The notes below the pieces were generated by a model, which worked only from the letters and a program-made list of their open reading frames with translations, was not told where the DNA came from and ran no database searches. Shown here piece after piece: positions 1 through 7,493 of a stretch of DNA of 7,493 nucleotides. The translations under genes and the position numbers were made by a program. The DNA is from a virus (taxonomy: Duplodnaviria; Heunggongvirae; Uroviricota; Caudoviricetes). Where the stretch lies: IMG/VR virus record IMGVR_UViG_3300029875_000118. One strand, written 5' to 3'. The stretch's first letter is position 1, and the number at the start of each line of letters is the position of its first letter.

Positions 1-500
1 ATTTCTCCTACTTCCTCGGCAATCAATCCGTAGAATCCCCAGTCACGCCTGTCATTTTCGCATTGCGACCTGTACCACACAGGGCGCATCTTGAAAATGA
101 GATCGGCGTGCTCTGAATCTATCGTCTCTACTGAATGTTTATAGCGAATAGACGATGTTGACCGCAGTACAGACGAAATTGCGGGGTCAGGATTAAGATA
201 AAGATTTGCCGCCGCTGTAGTCGTGGCCAAATTCCATAAATAAAACGCTTCACGACCTGTCAGTGGATAAAAATCTCCCCCATAACGACCGCTTTCCAGA
301 TCATTCACTTCTACTTTGTTTTTGAGCTTATTATCCACTTCAGTTTTTGTGTATCTGGTACTGATATCCTGCTTTGCACTGGTCATATCAGTCTGAAGTG
401 TTGATACTTTTACGTTAATTGAGGAAATATCTTCCTTAGCTTTACTGACATCTCCCTTTAGCGTGGTGATGTCTCCTGGAATTACTGTCGATGTAGCCAT
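1..500 (-). CDS. Tail-fibre-like protein, N-terminal 166 codons (C-terminus beyond the left edge): coiled-coil-like N-terminus followed by a peptidase-S74-like (intramolecular chaperone) motif
   Basis: ATG at 498-500 with SD GGGAGA 4 nt upstream and the preceding gene's TAA stop 9 nt upstream. The frame is open through position 1: MATSTVIPGDITTLKGDVSKAKEDISSINVKVSTLQTDMTSAKQDISTRYTKTEVDNKLKNKVEVNDL...STSSIRYKHSVETIDSEHADLIFKMRPVWYRSQCENDRRDWGFYGLIAEEVGE. The segment 'S-x-R-x-K ... L-x-x-RPV-x-Y ... G(F/L)IA(E/Q)EV' resembles the start of the auto-cleaving chaperone domain found at the C-terminus of phage tail spikes and fibres. The ORF track misses it because it runs off the edge. Confidence 0.6.
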   Translation of the reverse strand, partial: MATSTVIPGDITTLKGDVSKAKEDISSINVKVSTLQTDMTSAKQDISTRYTKTEVDNKLKNKVEVNDLESGRYGGDFYPLTGREAFYLWNLATTTAAANLYLNPDPAISSVLRSTSSIRYKHSVETIDSEHADLIFKMRPVWYRSQCENDRRDWGFYGLIAEEVGE

Positions 501-509
501 TTGTCTCCC

Positions 510-791
510 TTACATCCAGCCACGAATTTGATGATCAATAGCAATTGCGTATTCATCGAATATTGACGGTATTTTGACATCATTAATGATGCGTACGTTT
601 ACAAAATATCCGTCCTCCTTAACACATACAGGATCACCACCTTCTGTTAGTTCGCCTGTTTCTTTGTATACGTCACCTATTACATCAATGAGAACATCGT
701 TCTGTATCATCTCGTCATCATAATAACCAATGCTATCCATAAAGGCCGAAAAGTCTGCCTTGTCTGTGAATTTGATAATTAAATCTCGCAT
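510..791 (-). CDS. Hypothetical small acidic protein (93 aa), translationally coupled to the fibre gene; possibly a fibre chaperone or accessory protein
   Basis: ORF MRDLIIKFTDKADFSAFMDSIGYYDDEMIQ...HQIRGWM. Its ATG (789-791) shares one base with the fibre TAA (791-793) in a TAATG arrangement. A strong SD, GGGAGAGG, lies 6 nt upstream inside the fibre 3' end. About 20 Asp/Glu against 8 Lys/Arg. I do not recognise the family. Confidence 0.65.
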   Translation of the reverse strand: MRDLIIKFTDKADFSAFMDSIGYYDDEMIQNDVLIDVIGDVYKETGELTEGGDPVCVKEDGYFVNVRIINDVKIPSIFDEYAIAIDHQIRGWM

Positions 792-3230
792 TATATTACC
801 TCTCCCATTTGCGCATCGGTTAATTCTTTATGCCATATACGAAAATTACGAATGTGACCAAAAAGATGACGTAGGCCGCTATTAGTCTGCCCCCCAATCC
901 TGAAGAAATAACCAGATTTGACACCGACATGATCCGTGGTTTTAGGAGTTCCATGCTGGGCATTGCTAACGAAATGCACATTACCAGATTCATTTAAAAC
1001 AAATCCAAGAACAGATTTTTGTTCAAATAATACTGGCGATACCGCGGCTACTGTACTACCGTTTTTATTGTACATTGTAACACCAGGAAATAATGTTGAA
1101 CTGATAGCAACACTTATATATTGACCCGGAGTTGTACTCCCACCACTGGTATCAAAAACTCGTGGTGCTGCATTTGGCGTTTCGTTCCAGTTTGTATGAA
1201 CTTCAGCTAGAAATGTTAAAGGTGGTGTACCGATATTGTTATTTGTTGGTATATTCACCATATCACTGGCTCTTGTGACTGGCGTTGCCTCAGTAATAAT
1301 AAACGAAGAAGCGCACGAACCGCCTTCGACCTGAGGAGTTGCAACATAAATATAATCATCTGCACCAGTGCCACCCCCTTTTGGTGGTGCATATTGCACC
1401 ATCGCACCGATCATATTTTCTGTATCAAGTGCCTTAATTGTTGCCTCAAAGAAAATCCATTTGCTTGCTTCATTTTTAACAGCCCTTGCAGTAATACGAC
1501 TTGCAGCGCCGCCAGTTTTATCAATCGATAAATCTGTCATATTTAAGTAAGCATCACCCAGGAATTTGTAGGTAGAGCCATCATATTCTTCAAATCGTAA
1601 TCGACATCTTAAATTTGGAGTCCCACTTTGTACCCTGCATGAGATAGTTACATACTTTTCATCGCCGGTAACATCATATCCTTTGCTTCCAGATACTGTG
1701 ACAATAGAAATGGCTGAGGTTTGCCCCACCATTTCTGGTTTTAATGTGAATTTTGCGTACTGGAAACCAAAATCATCTACACCTGATGTATTTAAAATCA
1801 TATTTGATGACTTGTTCCACTTTGATGGATTTGTGCTGTTTATTAACAGGTTTGTACGCTGCCCTTCAATCAGCAATCCATACTTTTCAAAGCGAGGTTC
1901 ATCGATTGCAGCCTCTGTCAGCACACCAGATTTATTAATATAGGTTGCTTTCGATGCGCGTTTAAACTTTACAATCTTGTCGCCAGGCATTGTTATTTCA
2001 TCGTCGCCAATAACAATCTTTTTATATGATGGCGAAAAGCCCGTAATCATATCCAGTGAATCGTTAAATGGTATCCACACATCAGGAAGCGGCTGTAATA
2101 CATATTTATACGGTTCTGCTGCCTGGCTTGCGTACTCTCTGGCTGCGTCTTCACTTGCTTTAGCTGCTGTCTGGCTTGCAGCGGATGCTTTCGCCGAGTT
2201 CGCCGCCGCAGTCTCGCTCGCCTTTGCGTTGGTTTCACTGGTTTTTGCAGCTTTTTGACTATTTGCTGATGCAGTGGCAGAAGCAGCCGCCGCACTTGCA
2301 GAACCAGCTGCGGCACTCTCGCTTTCAGCTGCTGCATCCTGACTACTTTTCGCCGCAGTTTCACTGGCTTTAGCGTTCGTTTCGCTGGTCTTCGCTGCCG
2401 TCTGACTGGACTTTGCGTTAGTTTCGCTAGTCTTCGCTGCTTTCTGGCTGTTAGCCGCAGCAGTTGCTGATCCAGCTGCTGAAGTCGCAGAACCGGCTGC
2501 CGCGCTCTCGCTTTCGGCTGCTGCATTCTGGCTATTNNNNNNNNNNNNNNNNNNNNNNNNNNNNNNNNNNNNNNNNNNNNNNNNNNNNNNNNNNNNNNNN
2601 NGCCGTCTGGCTGGACTTTGCGTTGGTTTCGCTCGTCTTTGCTGCTGTCTCGCTATTTTTCGCGTTGGTTTCGCTCGTCTTTGCTGCTGTCTCGCTATTT
2701 TTCGCGTTGGTTTCTGATTTTTTGGCTGCTGTCGCGGAGTTTGCCGATGCAGTCTGTGAGGCCGCTGCCGCCTGTGCGCTGTTACCTGCATTCGTCTCTG
2801 ACGTTTTCGCCGCGTTCTTCGATGATGCCGCTGCAGTTTCGGATTTCTTTGCCGCCGCTGCGCTCTGAGAGGCGGCTTCGGCGTTGCGTGCCGCTTCTTC
2901 CACCATTGCCTCAAAACGACGCAATGCCTCCGGCATGACATCCTCTTCCGTCATGGCACCGAGAAAATCATTCAGCGTACCTGGTCTGGAACCTTCATAG
3001 ACGGTAATGGTCCCGGCATGTGAAGGCGGAAAACCTTCAACCAGCAGGATAACGCTGTACTGGCCATACTCAACATCCATACTGTAACGCCCGGCTTCAT
3101 CCGGATTTTCTGAGGCCACCGTGTTTACCACAACCGTGGTGCTGTTACGTTTTGCTTTGAGCTGAATGGTGCAGTTCTGTATCGGTTTTCCTGCACCGTC
3201 TTTCAGCACACCTGAAATCTGTACTGCCAT
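791..3230 (-). CDS. stf: Side tail fibre protein (lambda Stf-like N-terminus and repeat shaft, non-lambda distal domain); interrupted by an N-run with an apparent frame change
   Basis: The N-terminal frame reads (MN)MAVQISGVLKDGAGKPIQNCTIQLKAKRNSTTVVVNTVASENPDEAGRYSMDVEYGQYSVILLVEGFPPSHAGTITVYEG..., which matches the lambda Stf N-terminus as I recall it. GGAG lies 5 nt upstream of the ATG at 3228-3230; the ORF-track start at 3236 sits inside that spacer. Ala/Ser/Thr/Glu-rich repeats (KTSETNAKSSQTAAKTSETNAK...) run into the N-run at 2537-2601. The same repeat protein resumes in a different frame after the gap and continues to a TAA at 791-793, ending ...GHIRNFRIWHKELTDAQMGEVI. The two ORF-track pieces (2532..3236 and 791..2941) are therefore one gene. 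The Arg-rich N-terminal part of the 716-aa ORF (2602..2941) is an off-frame artefact. Confidence 0.8.
2270..2536. repeat. Imperfect long-period direct repeat (about 189 bp, about 63 codons) in the fibre shaft-coding region
   Basis: The segment beginning gcagaaccagctgcggcactctcgctttcagctgctgcatcctgact (from 2298) recurs with a few mismatches from 2487 (gcagaaccggctgccgcgctctcgctttcggctgctgcattctggct). The protein shows the matching repeat ...AAAESESAAAGSA...NSQKAAKTSETNAK... Confidence 0.8.
2537..2601. other. Run of 65 N (assembly gap or masked bases) inside the repeat region of the fibre gene
   Basis: Directly visible. The true coding frame differs on the two sides of the run. Confidence 0.99.
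2620..2703. repeat. Perfect 42-bp tandem duplication (two copies) inside the fibre shaft-coding region
   Basis: 2620-2661 and 2662-2703 are identical (gcgttggtttcgctcgtctttgctgctgtctcgctatttttc), encoding a 14-aa unit of the TSETNAKNSETAAK type. Degenerate copies flank it. Confidence 0.9.
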
Positions 3231-3240
3231 ATTCACTCCA

Positions 3241-3269
3241 CAAATAAAAAAGGCACCATTTCTGGTGCC
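3241..3269 (-). terminator. Rho-independent terminator-like hairpin between J and the side tail fibre gene
   Basis: On the minus strand: GGCACCA-GAAA-TGGTGCC (7-bp GC-rich stem, GNRA-type tetraloop) followed immediately by TTTTTTATTTG. It sits 20 nt after the J stop and directly upstream of the fibre RBS (GGAG) and start. It is probably leaky, since the fibre gene has no room for its own promoter. Confidence 0.55.
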
Positions 3270-3288
3270 CGAATTTGGGTTTTAAAAT

Positions 3289-6200
3289 TCAACTGATACG
3301 GATACCGGCTGTTGATTTCTTCATCACGACAACAAGAAGGTCGCTGATACTGGTCGTTGGCGTCCAGTTATTAGCACCATATGAAGAAACATTGAAAGTC
3401 AGGGTGACATGACCGTGTCCGGCAGGCATATCAATGACGGATGAAAATACCCTGCTGACATCCGTCGCGGGTTGCTGAAAGATTTCCTGTCCGTTCTTCA
3501 GCACCTGCAGCTTACAGGTTGAATACCAGTATGACTGTTGGTTGTTGCTGTTGAAGTTTTCATGCTTACCACCGCGAAACAGAACGGGTGGGATTACTAT
3601 CTGACGGTCAAAAGCCTGGTCATCGTACACAGTGACCGTTATTGTACCGCTGGCATAACTGCCATTTCTCGGAAAGGCTTTTCCCACCGTTTTGACAATA
3701 TCACCTTCAATCTGGTTGGCAGACAGTTTTCCCAGAATCCGACAGTTCTGGTTAATCGTGACATTGTTGAGCGTCCCGGAGTTCGCATTCACGTTACCGC
3801 TGATATCGGCATTTTTCGCCGTCAGCCGCCCGTCCGGTGTCAGGGAAAATACCGGAGGATTGCCGCCGCTGGTAATGGTGGGAGCCGTCAGATACTTCAG
3901 GAACACTTCGTTCATGAATATCTGGTTGCCCTGCGCCACAAACATCGGTGTTTCATTCCCGTTTGCCGGGTCAATAAACGCGATACGATTGGCGGCAACC
4001 AGAAACTGGCTCAGTTTGCCTTCCTCTGTATCCTCCATGCTGAGGCCAAGCCCCGCGACATAATGCTTACCGTCTTCGGTCTGCTCAATTTTGACGCCCC
4101 ACATGGCATTCCATTTATCGTTGGCGTCTTTCCACTCTTTCGAAAACTCATCCAGTCTGCTGGCGTTATCCTCCGTCAGGTCGACTTTTTCCAGCAGCTC
4201 TTTACCGAGATGGGATTCGGTTATCTGGCCTTTGAAAAAATCCAGGTAACCTTCCGCATCATCGCTCGCCCGACCGACGGCTTCCACGAATGCTGATTTG
4301 CCAACGGTGTTCACACTGCGAACGTAAAAATAATAATCATGGCCAGGCTTGATATTGATACTGGCGGCTATCCAGTACAGCGCCGTGCCAAGATAACGCG
4401 CGCTGGTTTCAACCTGCCTGATATCGGTAATCCGCTTTTCCGAGAACCAGAACTCAAACTGTACCGTCGGGTCATAAACCGCAAGATGCGGCGTGGCGGT
4501 TATCTGAAAATAGCCCGGCGTCAGCTCAATCCGCGATGGCGCTGCCGGTGCGGCAATCCGGAACGATACCGACGCCGGATCCCCCTGCTGTCCCCACGCA
4601 TTTACCGCCCGGACTGTCAGCCTGTAGTTCCCCAGCGCCAGTTGCGTGAAGCGGTATGTGGTTTCCGTCGTCCTGGCCGTGCTGACCAGTCGCTCACTGC
4701 CATCGTCCGCTGCCACGGTCAGGCGAAGCAGGAAGCTCACGCCCTTCACCACCTTCGGCGTGTCCCAGCGCGCCAGCACCTGATATTCCCCGCTGTCAGC
4801 GGTGACTTCTGCGGTCAGGTGCTGCACCGCTGGCGGCGTGACACCGTTCACCGTTCCGCTCTGGTCGCCGTCAAAGTGCGCCCCGTTATCCACGATGGCT
4901 TCTTTCTCCGGTACATGCTGCACGGCAGTGATGGCATACGTGCCGTCGTCGTTCTCACGGATACTCACACAGCGGAACAGGCGCTGGCGCAGCGTCGGCA
5001 GCTTCAGCCCCCACACGCTGTACTCGGCAACGCCGTCAGGAACCCGGCTCACTTTCACCTTCACGCCGTCGGTGACGGACTGGACCTCCACGCTGACCGG
5101 ATTCCCCTGCCCGTCAACCAGGCTTATCAGCGTGGTGCCGGAGGATGGCAGCGTGATTTCACGGTCGAGCGTCAGCGTCCGGGTCTGGCGGTTCACCGCC
5201 AGCACGCGCCCGCCGATGCTGATCCCCGCATAGTCATCATCACAGATTTCAATAACATCGCCCGGTACATGGCGAAGCCCTTCGGCACCCACGCTGAAGT
5301 CCACGGTCTGCGTTTCCAGCAGCTCCGTTTTAATCAGCCACAGCCCGGCGCGGTGTGCCTGCCCCCGGCTGGTACAGCCAAAGGCATCCATTTTCGTGAC
5401 GTTACGACCGTAACGGCGAATGGCCTGCGTATCCTCCACAAGCTCTGTCGCCGTCTCCCAGCCGTTATTCGGGTCAATCCAGTTCACCTCAACGGCATTA
5501 TGGCGGTCCTTCAGGGCGCTGAAGCTGTAGCGGAACGGCGCGCCATCATCCGGCATCACCACATTACTGCGGTTATAGGTCCACACCTTATCCGACGGTC
5601 GGTCCTGCACGAACGTCAGCGTCTGCCCGTTCCATACCGGCATACAGCGCATTGCCGAGCAGAAATCACTGAGAACATCCCACGCCTTACGCTGTGTGGT
5701 CAGGTAGGCATTACAGGAAATGCACGGCTCCGTGCCACCAAAACCGTCCGGCACCGACTGGTCGCAATACTGGCCGATGACATACAGCGCCCATTTGTCC
5801 ACATCCGCCGCACCAAGACGTTTCCCCATGCCGTAGCGCGGATGGGTCAGCATATCCCACAGACACCAGGCCATGTTGTTGCTGTATGCTGGCTTAAACG
5901 TTCCGTCCCAGATACCGCTGTATTGCCGCGTCTGCGGGTTATAGTTCGACGGCACCTGCAGAATGCGCCCGCGAAGATGATAATTACGGCTCACCTGCTG
6001 ACTGCCGAACTGTTCCGAGTCCACCTGCACGCCGACCAGTGCCGTGTTCGGGTAGCACTGTTTCACATCNNNNNNNNNNNNNNNNNNNNNNNNNNTGTTC
6101 TGCAGCTGGTCTGTGGTGCTGTCCGGCGTCATCCTGCGCATCCGGATATTAAACGGGCGCGGCGGCAGGTTACCCACCACCACCGAGGCCAGATACTGCG

Positions 6201-6681
6201 AGGTGGTTTTGCCCTTAATGGTGATGTCTTTTTCCGTCACCCAGCCACCGTTACGCTGTATCTGAACCAGCAGGCGGACTTCCGACGGATTCCTGTCCCC
6301 CTTTGAGGTGGTTTCCACCAGTGTCTGCACGCCGAAAGTAAAACGCAGACGGTCAATGTTTGCCGACGTGATGGTCCGGGTGATCGGCGTGTCATATTTC
6401 ACTTCTGTACCGAGCACCGTCTCGGAGCCGGAGGATTCAAACCCCTCCGGCGGAGTCTGCTCCTGCTCACCTGCCCGGAACACCACCGTGACGCCGGAGA
6501 TGTTGGTATTCCCCTCAGTGTCCAGCACTGGCGTACTGTTCAGCAGCACGCTTTTTAATCCATCCACCGGACCGTCAATCGGCCCTTCGCTGATGGCATC
6601 GATCACACTCAGCAACTGCGTGGACTTCAGGTTGTCCTTCGCTTCGCGCGGGGTATGCCCCTTACTGCTGCCTTTACCCAT
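3289..6681 (-). CDS. J: Host specificity protein J (tail tip / central tail fibre, lambda gpJ family)
   Basis: 1130-aa [41 protein letters not shown]...AGIRIS with TGA stop at 3289-3291. GGAG lies about 8 nt upstream of the ATG. The length and sequence over most of the protein match lambda gpJ as I recall it. It contains a 25-nt N-run that keeps the frame (9 X codons). Confidence 0.95.
6070..6094. other. Run of 25 N (unresolved or masked bases) inside gene J; reading frame is preserved across it
   Basis: Directly visible. The J translation continues in frame on both sides (...TDQLQN-X9-DVKQCYPNT...). Confidence 0.99.
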
Positions 6682-6703
6682 TCTTCACGCTCCATAAACG
6701 ACA

Positions 6704-6723
6704 AAACCGCCCGCAGGCGGTTT
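6704..6723. promoter_or_regulatory. Perfect 8-bp inverted repeat (AAACCGCC-cgca-GGCGGTTT) in the I-J intergenic spacer; possible RNA stem-loop of unknown function
   Basis: Read directly from the sequence at 6704-6711 and 6716-6723, within the 60-nt spacer between the I stop and the J start. There is no long U-tract downstream on the coding (minus) strand, so it is not a canonical intrinsic terminator. Confidence 0.3.
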
Positions 6724-6741
6724 CACATAAAACATTTTGCA

Positions 6742-7389
6742 TCAGCGACCAATCACCACAACCTGACCACCATCACCTTCATCTGCCGTGCTGATCTCCT
6801 GAGATACCACTCGCGACCCCACACGCATTTCACCGTACAGAACGGGCAGAACATTGCCCTGGGCAACCATGTTATCCAGTGACGAGAAATACGTGTTCTG
6901 TTTGCCGTTATCTGTACTGGCTGCCGTGGGCGTCCGGGCTTTCGGTGCCAGCATCTGCGCCACACCACCCAGGATCATACTGGCCCCAGCCGCATACATG
7001 CCCGATAAAGCCGCGGCACCCAGCCAGCCTGCGGGGTTCCACCACGCCACCGCAATCAGCGCCGCACCCAGCACCGCCTGAAAAACACCGCCACTTTTGG
7101 CTCCCGCCAGACGCGGCACGATGTGGATCACTGCACCATTTGCCAGCGGCTCATTAAGACGGGCAGATAATTCGGTTTCACCTGCATCACGCCCGGCAAT
7201 GCGCACCTGATACCAGCCGTCATTCAGTTTCTGACGAAACGCCGGGACCTGTGTGGACAGCGCCCGGATGGCTTCAGCCCCCGTTTTCACACGAAGGTCG
7301 ATGCGGCGGCCAAATCGTTGCAAATCCCCGTAAAGGCAGATGCGTGCCATGCCTGGTGACGCCAGAGGGAGTGTGTGCGTCGCTGCCAT
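6742..7389 (-). CDS. I: Tail assembly protein I (lambda gpI-like)
   Basis: 215-aa ORF MAATHTLPLASPGMARICLYGDLQRFGRR...SQEISTADEGDGGQVVVIGR with a Gly/Ala-rich hydrophobic segment in the middle. An SD-like GAGAGAGG lies about 10 nt upstream of the ATG at 7389. Its position between K and J and the N- and C-terminal sequence match lambda gpI as I remember it. Confidence 0.88.
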   Translation of the reverse strand: MAATHTLPLASPGMARICLYGDLQRFGRRIDLRVKTGAEAIRALSTQVPAFRQKLNDGWYQVRIAGRDAGETELSARLNEPLANGAVIHIVPRLAGAKSGGVFQAVLGAALIAVAWWNPAGWLGAAALSGMYAAGASMILGGVAQMLAPKARTPTAASTDNGKQNTYFSSLDNMVAQGNVLPVLYGEMRVGSRVVSQEISTADEGDGGQVVVIGR

Positions 7390-7493
7390 TTGTCGGTATA
7401 CCTCTCTCGTTTGCTCAGTTGTTCAGGAATATGGTGCAACAGCTCGCCGTCGCCGCAGTAAATGGCGGCATGATTCGGCACCGATGAACCAAA
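7287..7493 (-). CDS. K: Tail assembly protein K, C-terminal fragment (N-terminus lies beyond the right edge of the window)
   Basis: The minus-strand frame is open from the window edge and reads ...FGSSVPNHAAIYCGDGELLHHIPEQLSKRERYTDKWQRRTHSLWRHQAWHASAFTGICNDLAAASTFV, ending at a stop at 7287-7289. The 'HAAIYCGDG' segment fits the His-containing motif of NlpC/P60-type peptidases, and the sequence matches my recollection of the lambda gpK C-terminus. The ORF track shows only the 64-aa piece from an internal GTG. It overlaps gene I by about 103 nt in a different frame, as I recall for lambda K/I. Confidence 0.8.
   Translation of the reverse strand, partial: FGSSVPNHAAIYCGDGELLHHIPEQLSKRERYTDKWQRRTHSLWRHQAWHASAFTGICNDLAAASTFV

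Follow-up and report, generated by a model that had tools for sequence, protein, structure and literature searches.

A compositionally foreign receptor-recognition segment in the side tail fibre locus of a lambda-like prophage

We asked how a low-GC end came to be joined to a GC-rich, lambda-like tail operon in a 7,493-nt stretch of viral DNA (the window; Table 1). The initial annotation had read positions 1-2130 as a cassette of three co-oriented genes, grafted onto the lambda-like backbone and acquired as a unit from a lower-GC phage or host lineage. We consider a modified reading probable, namely that positions 1-2092 form the distal, swappable half of a side tail fibre locus with several components within a lambda-like prophage, and that the GC step marks exchange with an AT-rich phage pool.

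Table 1. Features of the window and their GC content.
Feature	Position	Strand	GC	Remarks
gene3, 5' part	1..500	minus	0.436	234-aa protein, of which codons 1-166 are present; truncated at window edge
Spacer GGGAGACAA	501..509	minus		9 nt, between orf93 and gene3; Shine-Dalgarno-like GGGAG
orf93	510..791	minus	0.376	acidic 93-aa protein (PHROG 1361); translationally coupled to fibre by TAATG
Lambda Stf-type fibre	3230->791	minus
Distal fibre			0.404
Conserved fibre C-terminal 27 residues	794..874	minus		aa 781-807
Hypervariable tip	875..1144	minus		aa 691-780; in putative ConA/LamG-like lectin domain
Distal module body	1145..2089	minus		aa 376-690; opens with universal junction motif LPDVWIPFNDSLDMITGFSPSYKK... 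(~1919-2089)
Fibre shaft	2090..2837	minus	0.55-0.56	Ala/Ser/Thr-rich, repetitive; 42-nt tandem repeats, SETNAK type
Stf-type N-terminal tail-attachment domain	2838..3230	minus	0.53 (fibre N-terminus)	aa 1-131; ATG at 3230; Pfam PF08400
Terminator-like hairpin	3251..3270	minus		between J and fibre, at lambda's lom position
Tip attachment protein J	3289..6681	minus	0.567 (first two thirds ~0.60, last third ~0.50)	1130 aa; six J-specific Pfam domains
Tail assembly protein I	6742..7389	minus	0.598	ORF; homologous L008 gene has PF06805
K (C40/JAB peptidase)	7287..7493	minus		C-terminal 68 codons; from translation

K, I and J share 91% nucleotide identity with lambda, and K overlaps I by 103 nt, the same overlap as in lambda. 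J and lambda J are 94-100% identical as far as about residue 950 and 48-70% identical over the last 180 residues. The fibre gene starts 59 nt past the J stop codon within this lambda-like tail operon; its residues 1-131 match the prophage tail fibre N-terminal family PF08400 (E = 7.8e-69, 230 bits against a cut-off of 26.6 bits), and positions 2881-3247 are 85.6% identical to lambda stf at the nucleotide level. A 65-nt N-run (2537-2601) splits the shaft, and the flanking reading frames differ by one base; a continuous fibre frame across it is putative in the window, and six near-identical public contigs have 49 nt in its place and encode an intact 807-aa fibre. The three units of the cassette proved to be co-oriented and coupled as proposed: all lie on the minus strand, the fibre stop codon (TAA, 791-793) overlaps the orf93 ATG (791-789) in a TAATG at 789-793, and the 9-nt spacer separates the orf93 stop codon (510-512) from the gene3 ATG (500-498).

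Profiling of GC and codon usage along the window confirmed a significant shift near position 2100. Total GC is 0.407 over 1-2130 compared with 0.562 over 2131-7493, and a two-segment maximum-likelihood fit places the change point at 2111 (log-likelihood ratio 75). At third codon positions, GC (GC3) amounts to 0.33 across the cassette, 0.48 across the fibre N-terminus and shaft, and 0.67 across I and J; the cassette differs from I and J with a chi-square p of 1.5e-47 and from the fibre N-terminus and shaft with p = 2e-6. The by-eye estimate of a fall from ~60% to ~35-45% was accurate for the low end and, on the high side, for I and most of J, but overstated for the shaft and fibre N-terminus. 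GC3 descends along the window as a staircase rather than in a single step, with its own change point at ~2374-2494, within the shaft (log-likelihood ratio 15.2 compared with a top value of 9.4 among 300 permutations), where it drops from 0.53 to ~0.36-0.42 past ~2494. Because this decrease begins ~300-400 nt upstream of the LPDVW junction, the junction is no clean compositional border, and the sharp step in total GC at 2111 is partly the end of the Ala-rich shaft (GC2 0.71). The cassette is a compositionally foreign, horizontally exchanged segment, as judged by its GC and GC3 shift and its homologues in composition-matched genomes.

The distal module of the fibre comprises ~430 aa, starting at the motif LPDVWIPF (~2089). 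The region encoding residues 376-690 is 82-84% identical over ~1 kb at the nucleotide level to fibre genes of T1-like, T5-like and Seuratvirus phages, with stretches of 90-180 nt reaching 93% between temperate and virulent phages, and the encoded residues are ~90% identical to homologues in low-GC virulent phages. The module body matches the head spike fibre domain NF048003 (distal residues 92-293; 62.7 bits against a cut-off of 36 bits) and PDB 6tb9, the "Head spike fiber Rcc01080" of the R. capsulatus GTA (E = 1.9e-5), while the ConA/LamG-like family PF13385 scored 22.9 bits on the fibre against a gathering score of 27.6 bits. Pfam gave no S74 match in this first fibre, which ends in the putative LamG-like region and a conserved tail: residues 781-807 show 59-81% identity among the lambdoid, T1-, T5- and Seurat-like fibres, whereas the preceding 90 residues are unrelated. 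These 90 residues (691-780) are the likely specificity determinant. The low-GC segment thus corresponds to the receptor-recognition end of a side tail fibre with accessory genes, in agreement with the earlier assignment.

A recurrent junction at 2050-2130 had also been predicted, and we found one there. The LPDVW junction, with LPDVWIPF at ~2089, is common to ten fibres from seven groups, homology to virulent phages begins at 2086-2137, and about 12 of the 60 sampled E. coli records match positions 1926-2093 only; in two such records that we examined, the allele is of the 2E9 type and either the shaft is a different one or the fibre is interrupted. We rejected position 2111 itself as an allelic breakpoint among lambdoid prophages, because the homology of the sampled E. 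coli records mostly crosses it and ends at ~1850, 1808 or 2036.

The distal module and the small ORF occur together in lambdoid, Jouyvirus, Dhillonvirus, T1-like, T5-like, Seuratvirus and rV5-like phages. Whatever the GC of the upstream part (0.42-0.56), the module has a GC of 0.39-0.43 and a GC3 of ~0.30, the exception being a Dhillonvirus copy at GC 0.54. Among complete E. coli genomes, 720 of 5426 carry the orf93-gene3 pair and 1331 of 5426 the shaft and junction; the isolated lambdoid phages IdasGreatGrand (on which we found no paper) and PhiR49_1 likewise carry the cassette. A graft private to this genome, or a recent one, is incompatible with these counts. The initial annotation had named, as counter-evidence, related lambda-like phages in which this segment has an unaltered composition; such relatives exist, and they date the fusion as old, while the foreign composition still stands. 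Nor did the segment behave as a single acquired unit. Relative to T1-like swan01, identity passes from ~90% (fibre residues 376-690) through ~15% (691-780) to 48% (orf93) and 55% (gene3); among lambdoid prophages and E. coli prophages only ~800-1950 forms a hypervariable core, both flanks being conserved; and in Lambda_2E9, a Dhillonvirus record and LL12 the S74 gene is missing although the fibre and small ORF are present. Taken together, these data partly support the initial annotation: the segment is a receptor module of foreign composition with a recurrent junction, but neither a private or recent graft nor inherited as one block.

Of the proposed lower-GC sources, phage or host, our data favour a phage. 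Close homologues are found in low-GC virulent phages, whereas a scan of species-representative genomes for a bacterial source returned the small ORF in Escherichia contigs only, and an exact 50-mer spanning the orf93-gene3 junction had zero matches in that collection. The closest contigs are Escherichia assemblies, with E. marmotae as the species of the nearest homologue that bears a name. The composition of the module (GC 0.40, GC3 0.29-0.30) is matched by T5-like genomes only, and the GC step therefore points to modular exchange with an AT-rich phage pool; it is this parity in composition that suggests a direction of transfer.

Directly downstream of the fibre gene, where a Tfa-family chaperone was sought, orf93 is found instead; a truncated tfa remnant lies further downstream of the cassette in E. 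coli relatives. The protein gave no Pfam or NCBIfam match, only chance-level sequence matches to the PDB and no recognisable chaperone match for its predicted fold, and a profile search of 1.84 billion representatives returned only 85 clusters. Weak multi-stretch matches to giant proteins with PKD repeats, and one to a TPR protein, were judged artefacts of motif or composition, the PKD matches because orf93 is modelled with an alpha/beta and not an Ig-like fold and the Pfam PKD domain is absent from it. As orf93 stands beside the distal module in every phage group examined, its sequence distribution marks it as a conserved partner of the LPDVWIPF-type fibre. Compared with IdasGreatGrand, the two copies of orf93 are 85% identical, whereas the fibre tips are 97-98% identical (nucleotide); orf93 does not co-vary with the tip. 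Most likely, orf93 would serve as the dedicated assembly factor or adaptor of the fibre, at the position that follows stf in lambda and encodes Tfa there.

The product of the third gene opens with a putative docking motif (MATSTVIPGDITTLK) at its N-terminus, followed by a predicted long helix and, from S116, the start of a predicted Peptidase_S74 intramolecular chaperone domain. The fragment in the window, cut at residue 166, scored 21.5 bits with PF13884 (cut-off 22 bits), while a 95%-identical full-length E. coli homologue scored 27.3 bits; gene3 also matched PDB chain 8hqz_d, "L-shaped tail fiber assembly" (E = 5.7e-8). An AF2 monomer model of the full-length homologue was unusable (pLDDT 50) and was left out of the fold search. 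The Ser-Lys dyad is present in the cleavage motif S-x-x-R-x-K (S116-S-I-R-Y-K121), and across 22 homologues T115, Y120 and K121 are invariant, S116, S117 and R119 at least 90% conserved, and the docking motif invariant or nearly so. The protein may form a short trimeric stub consisting of the N-terminal motif, a coiled coil and a C-terminal S74 chaperone, which, judging by its sequence, could cleave itself at S116 to leave a small branch or cap. Its motif, M-x-T-x-T-V-I-P-x-D-I-T-x-L-K, matches that of distal fibre proteins predicted to dock on a homologous T5-like proximal fibre; the BASEL-II AlphaFold-Multimer prediction has gp24 docking onto gp22, a proximal fibre with a galectin-like domain at its end. 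We tentatively suggest a broader possibility, that orf93 stands for a class of assembly factors or adaptors of tail fibres that is new, and whose coupling to the LPDVWIPF module is obligatory in at least six groups of coliphages, among them temperate as well as virulent phages and both siphoviruses and myoviruses, with the short S74 protein acting in trans as a removable cap or chaperone and not as a second receptor-binding branch.

We regard the fibre as a chimera by design, in which a lambda Stf anchor and an Ala/Ser/Thr shaft of backbone-like composition are joined at LPDVWIPFNDSLDMITGF... to the distal module, made up of a head-spike-fibre-like domain, a putative ConA/LamG lectin-like tip with its 90-aa hypervariable patch, and the conserved 27-aa tail. 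The module belongs to a gene pool on which temperate lambdoids draw together with virulent coliphages of the T5-, T1-, Seurat/Nonag-, Dhillon- and rV5-like groups, with homologous recombination in the conserved flanks as the probable route of exchange. Its function may be to bind a surface glycan, O-antigen for example, in a reversible primary step that sets host range; O-antigen binding has been assigned to the lateral fibres of BASEL phages (PMC8594841, PMC11990801).

We considered whether the junction or the GC step could have arisen otherwise. An assembly chimera or masked-stretch artefact might be suspected from the N-run, whose two sides are in different reading frames and which is 430 nt away from the change point, on its upstream side, but independent assemblies already exclude it: the identical arrangement is seen in 17 independent contigs, in isolated phages and in 96 complete E. 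coli genomes that each cover at least 80% of 1-3300. It is also very unlikely that the GC drop merely reflects protein composition or functional constraint in a beta-rich, Asn/Ile/Lys-rich receptor domain of native origin. While the end of the Ala-rich shaft, with its GC2 of 0.71 and a GC3 already at ~0.42, accounts for part of the 2111 step, synonymous sites shift the most (GC3 0.33 against 0.67, p on the order of 1e-47), and the Dhillonvirus "rolling" encodes the homologous domain at GC 0.54 and GC3 0.59, so this protein family can be encoded at high GC and does not require low GC.

Also unlikely is the view that the cassette is a long-resident portion of the AT-rich accessory arm of lambdoids, equivalent to the lambda b region, from which virulent phages took the module, such that the GC step is the usual boundary between left arm and b region. 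In lambda, GC indeed falls from 0.57-0.60 in K/I/J through 0.58/0.52 in stf and 0.49 in tfa to 0.31-0.38 in ea47/ea31/ea59; AT-rich DNA, including a KAP NTPase gene at GC 0.32, follows the cassette in near-identical contigs; the module is very common among E. coli prophages; and its GC is below that of the upstream part in T1-like swan01 and Seuratvirus KurtStettler too. However, the GC3 of the module (0.29-0.30) equals that of its structural neighbours in T5-like phages (0.26-0.30, compared with 0.41-0.52 in swan01), and since it causes no GC step in T5-like phages, this is the only group in which it looks native. In addition, the 97-aa gene directly past the cassette is back at GC 0.53, so that the low-GC tract does not run on into the accessory arm. 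We also judged it unlikely that gene3 is a nonfunctional fossil, in which the C-terminus of a long fibre gene survived the displacement of that gene and has a chance ATG. Its best PHROG match does align at positions 1147-1323 of a 1385-residue profile, and it lacks the receptor-binding body of the 510-579-aa third genes in KurtStettler, BUCT632 and IrisVonRoten, but conservation argues against this origin: third genes of ~224-234 aa with their own Shine-Dalgarno sequence and start codon are maintained in lambdoid prophages and in compact-genome T1-like virulent phages, the orf93-gene3 DNA recurs in the 720 E. coli genomes, and the docking motif and S74 residues are those described above as invariant or nearly so. 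Exchange with an AT-rich phage pool remains the reading that we prefer.

The closest known system is gp22-gp23-gp24 of the T5-like phage IrisVonRoten (Bas32, MZ501075), with equivalents in BUCT632, KurtStettler (Bas22) and swan01, which share the gene order: a long fibre, a ~92-aa ORF overlapping the fibre stop, a 9-nt spacer (also between gp23 and gp24) and an S74-ending protein (PMC8594841, PMC11990801). The present fibre and gp22 share 49% identity over 748 aa; in these relatives, identity is 73-75% for the distal part (BUCT632, swan01, KurtStettler), 35-48% for orf93 and 55% for gene3, and the N-terminal motif of the third protein is common to all four. Unlike IrisVonRoten, the present locus has a lambda Stf-type anchor (PF08400, 86% identical to lambda in nucleotide sequence) in a temperate, lambdoid backbone, an unrelated 90-aa tip, and a minimal, T1-like third protein of 234 aa without the 300-aa receptor-binding body of gp24. 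With lambda Stf/Tfa (Ur-lambda) it shares the position after J, N-terminal homology (58% amino-acid identity over 286 residues), a downstream gene coupled by a 1-nt overlap and, by analogy, a probable role in accessory primary adsorption. Compared with lambda, however, other sequences stand in for the entire distal half and for the chaperone, lom is missing, and GC drops within stf rather than after tfa. The branched LtfA/LtfB fibre of T5-like DT57C offers a possible analogy, being a two-protein fibre whose second protein attaches via the first, with autocleaving S74 chaperone domains and O-antigen recognition (PMC4728585, PMC10713586), but LtfA has its own S74 domain, whereas the first fibre here ends in a lectin-like domain and conserved tail, and a 93-aa ORF lies between the two fibre genes here.

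Tail-fibre modules are exchanged among unrelated phages, as between lambda Stf, T4 gp37/38 and P2 H (Montag 1989; Haggard-Ljungquist 1992; Sandmeier 1994, as cited in PMC3945230), and fibre-plus-chaperone modules are common to several Alteromonas phage families (PMC10579305). Similarly, a receptor module and small accessory gene move here between temperate and virulent phages and across morphotypes. In contrast with the Stf, gp37/38 and P2 H exchanges, a different protein family is involved, no invertase or crossover site is evident and conserved coding flanks are apparently used; the temperate-virulent identity is also high for such a pair.

The module is thus of a common, well-known kind and not a new kind of system. 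The locus nevertheless provides a clean, quantified case of a host-range module moving between temperate prophages and virulent therapy-candidate phages, with an LPDVWIPF junction, two conserved homology arms around a ~1.1-kb hypervariable core and an uncharacterised 93-aa partner gene as its concrete results. These may be of use for prophage fibre annotation, for predicting or engineering host range by swaps at natural junctions, and in making orf93 a target for functional work.

The GC drop first read by eye proved real: total GC was 0.407 over 1-2130, a cassette comprising the distal fibre, a 93-aa ORF following the fibre gene (orf93) and a third gene cut by the window edge (gene3), versus 0.562 elsewhere in the window, and a two-segment likelihood scan placed the change point at 2111 (log-likelihood ratio 75). 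The shift was also seen in codon usage, with GC3 rising from 0.33 for the cassette to 0.48 for fibre N-terminus plus shaft and 0.67 for I and J (cassette versus I+J, p = 1.5e-47, chi-square), and with CTG making up 73 of the 98 leucine codons in I+J versus 8 of 39 in the cassette. GC3 fell as a staircase, from ~0.71 in the J core through 0.58 in the J C-terminus, 0.53 in the fibre N-terminus and 0.42 in the distal shaft to 0.30 in the distal module (the C-terminal ~430 aa of the fibre, from the LPDVWIPF motif), followed by 0.34 in orf93 and 0.40 in gene3. Its change point lay at ~2374-2494, within the Ala/Ser/Thr-rich shaft (log-likelihood ratio 15.2 versus a maximum of 9.4 in 300 permutations). 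Since GC3 changes earlier and the Ala-rich shaft has a GC2 of 0.71, the total-GC step at 2111 partly marks the end of the shaft.

Every gene of the window is carried on the minus strand, and the tight coupling proposed for the three coding units was found in both its parts, namely a TAATG overlap at 789-793 and a 9-nt spacer, GGGAGACAA, at 501-509.

Features of the window and segments of the fibre protein
Feature	Position	Strand	Remark
K, last 68 codons	7287-7493	-	translation
I	6742-7389	-	
J	3289-6681	-	six J-specific Pfam domains
Terminator-like hairpin	3251-3270		
Side tail fibre gene	ATG 3230 to TAA 791-793	-	
orf93 (93-aa ORF)	510-791	-	
gene3	ATG 500 to off window edge	-	
Fibre, conserved segment	residues 376-690		about 90% identity to swan01, BUCT632, KurtStettler
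Fibre, divergent segment	residues 691-780		10-17% identity to swan01, BUCT632, KurtStettler
Fibre, C-terminal end	last 27 residues		59-81% identity to swan01, BUCT632, KurtStettler

Nucleotide identity to phage lambda was 91% across K, I and most of J, and the J protein was 94-100% identical to lambda J up to ~residue 950 versus 48-70% beyond it (last ~180 residues). The J C-terminus is a second swapped receptor-binding end within the window, and the terminal receptor of this divergent end probably differs from LamB. In the J C-terminus (3289-3830) GC drops to 0.44-0.50; a GC3 change point lies near 4512, and nucleotide homology to lambda and the isolated lambdoid phages IdasGreatGrand and PhiR49_1 ends at ~3736-3755. 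A 655-aa plus-strand ORF (4339-6306) runs antisense to J, and there are several more long plus-strand ORFs; these are most likely chance open frames of GC-rich coding DNA, not genes.

The fibre shaft contains a 65-nt N-run (2537-2601), either side of which the frames are off by one base. Searching for the exact orf93 protein returned 17 contigs, and the six near-identical ones retrieved matched the flanks of this run at 99-100% identity, carried 49 nt in its place and encoded an intact 807-aa fibre, so the frame break is limited to the masked stretch; fibre residue numbers follow this 807-aa ORF. A second N-run within J (6070-6095, 26 nt) corresponds to 32 nt in a near-identical relative contig, L008, and the original length may have been altered in both runs.

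The fibre has at its N-terminus the attachment domain of lambda Stf (PF08400, 230 bits), continues into a shaft built of 42-nt repeats and reads LPDVWIPFNDSLDMITGFSPSYKKIVIGDDEITMPGDK from residue 376 (window ~2089). Its distal 432 residues include a GTA head-spike-fibre-like domain (NF048003, 62.7 bits, cut-off 36); this distal part also matches PDB 6tb9 (E = 1.9e-5) and has a ConA/LamG-like region scoring under the Pfam threshold. PHROG 1419 spans the entire fibre protein, and the full architecture is therefore that of an established family. The acidic orf93 product matched PHROG 1361, a family without assigned function, had no Pfam or NCBIfam matches and was alpha/beta in its AF2 model. When its profile was run against a library of 1.84 billion representatives, weak multi-stretch matches to PKD-repeat giant proteins were obtained; orf93 has no PKD domain by Pfam, and these matches are probably an artefact of its GYFVNVRI motif. 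The gene3 product, 234 aa at full length in relatives, consists of a conserved N-terminal motif, a predicted long helix and a Peptidase_S74 intramolecular chaperone domain, which scored 21.5 bits in the truncated window copy and 27.3 in a full-length homologue (Pfam cut-off 22). Its S74 motif is S116-S-I-R-Y-K121, with T115, Y120 and K121 invariant and S116, S117 and R119 nearly so, and the C-terminal part of gene3 matches a chain of known structure from an L-shaped tail fibre (E = 5.7e-8).

The three-gene order recurs in four virulent phages, swan01 (T1-like), BUCT632 and IrisVonRoten (both T5-like) and KurtStettler (Seuratvirus), as a fibre gene, a ~92-aa ORF overlapping the fibre stop and a gene for an S74-ending protein; in IrisVonRoten (gp22-gp23-gp24) a 9-nt spacer precedes the third gene, as in the window. 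At the protein level, the distal fibre shares 73-75% of its residues with swan01, BUCT632 and KurtStettler, the fibre 49% with IrisVonRoten gp22 (across 748 residues), and orf93 35-48% with its counterparts in the virulent phages. The gene3 product was 55% identical to that of swan01, and the other third genes have nothing in common with it beyond the N-terminal motif M[AV]TxT[VI]IPxDITxLK and the S74 end. Such a three-gene lateral fibre layout has already been described for T5-like phages and small siphoviruses, and the BASEL papers ascribe O-antigen recognition to such fibres. IrisVonRoten gp22 is described as ending in a protruding galectin-like domain, and gp24 is predicted to dock on this proximal fibre (BASEL-II, PMC11990801). 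No S74 gene adjoins the fibre and small ORF in the lambdoid phage Lambda_2E9 (Jouyvirus), the rV5-like myovirus LL12 and the Dhillonvirus 'rolling', whose record stops just past the small ORF. Since, in addition, tblastn with orf93 hit 181 phage records, each time beside or overlapping a tail-fibre gene, the conserved core is the distal module plus orf93; the S74 protein is an optional third part. IdasGreatGrand and many E. coli prophages carry the very cassette of the window, with 95-96% nucleotide identity, and 720 of 5426 complete E. coli genomes have the orf93-gene3 pair (90-93% identity).

An alignment of ten fibres, drawn from seven phage groups, extends from LPDVW to the end, with unrelated upstream parts, and nucleotide homology to the virulent phages starts at 2086-2137 and ends at ~1142-1149. 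The junction that the initial annotation placed at 2050-2130 thus recurs, but it separates fibre backbones, and lambdoid alleles are swapped at breakpoints further in. Most of 60 sampled E. coli records have the same shaft, with homology continuous through 2111 and stopping at ~1850, 1808 or 2036. In ~12 of the 60 the match was limited to a conserved junction segment (1926-2093), and in the two of these inspected the allele is of the 2E9 type and either the shaft differs or the fibre is interrupted. Sliding identity across three lambdoid relatives resolved a hypervariable core (~800-1950) between a 5' conserved arm of shaft and junction and a 3' conserved arm of orf93 and gene3. Segments of the cassette have separate histories; orf93, for example, is 85% identical to its IdasGreatGrand copy within flanking DNA of 96-100% identity.

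The distal module has a GC of 0.39-0.43 and a GC3 of 0.28-0.36 in lambdoid, T1-like, T5-like and Seuratvirus fibres, and the upstream fibre parts in those groups range from 0.42 to 0.56 GC. The Dhillonvirus homologue is encoded at a GC of 0.54 and a GC3 of 0.59; the protein family can therefore do without AT-rich coding, which speaks against function alone as the cause of the low GC. The module fits the composition of its neighbours only in T5-like phages (neighbour GC3 0.26-0.30), being lower in GC than its surroundings in swan01 and slightly lower in KurtStettler. We infer that the source was an AT-rich phage pool with T5-like composition, and transfer out of this pool is the presumed direction. 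Nothing pointed to a bacterial source, the host-lineage donor raised as an option at the outset: a profile scan of species-representative bacterial genomes with orf93 found essentially Escherichia contigs, plus one contig of 2.8 kb, assigned to a Collinsella MAG, that is probably a mis-binned fragment. Lambda itself has a similar GC staircase (K/I/J 0.57-0.60, stf 0.58/0.52, tfa 0.49, b region 0.31-0.38), and beyond the cassette the near-identical contigs carry genes for a 97-aa membrane protein (GC 0.53) and a KAP NTPase (0.32), then thrS. The GC step is the transition from lambdoid left arm to accessory arm, which the module swap has moved to within the fibre gene.

In L008 (11007-13525), the 97-aa hydrophobic protein follows gene3, and the KAP-family NTPase gene lies on the opposite strand next to thrS-infC-rpmI-rplT-pheST. 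The 97-aa protein is 95% identical to the product of the gene after orf92 in Lambda_2E9 and in ST131-type prophages adjoining sitABCD. This region is the prophage end, with the KAP NTPase gene as candidate defence cargo.

Domain content, translational coupling, synteny, motifs, junctions, distribution and composition were observed directly. In the proposed mechanism, the Stf anchor would attach the fibre to the tail, and the lectin-like tip, which carries the hypervariable patch, would bind a surface glycan. In lambda, the Stf assembly chaperone Tfa is encoded after stf; orf93 sits in the place of tfa and shares the 1-nt overlap geometry of lambda stf/tfa, and its product may be an assembly factor or adaptor. 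A truncated tfa persists further downstream in E. coli relatives, which fits loss of the old distal stf and tfa by replacement. The gene3 product would dock by its N-terminal motif, trimerise aided by the S74 domain and then shed this domain at S116, leaving a 115-residue stub or cap.

Taken together, the finding is real and the initial interpretation of the cassette was broadly right. Fibre-plus-chaperone modules common to different families have already been described (PMC10579305). Of mild interest here are the universal junction with its precise definition, the rather high temperate-virulent identity (82-84% overall, up to 93% locally) and the uncharacterised 93-aa partner. Exchange of tail-fibre modules between unrelated temperate and virulent phages is a classic exception to their genetic isolation (PMC3945230).
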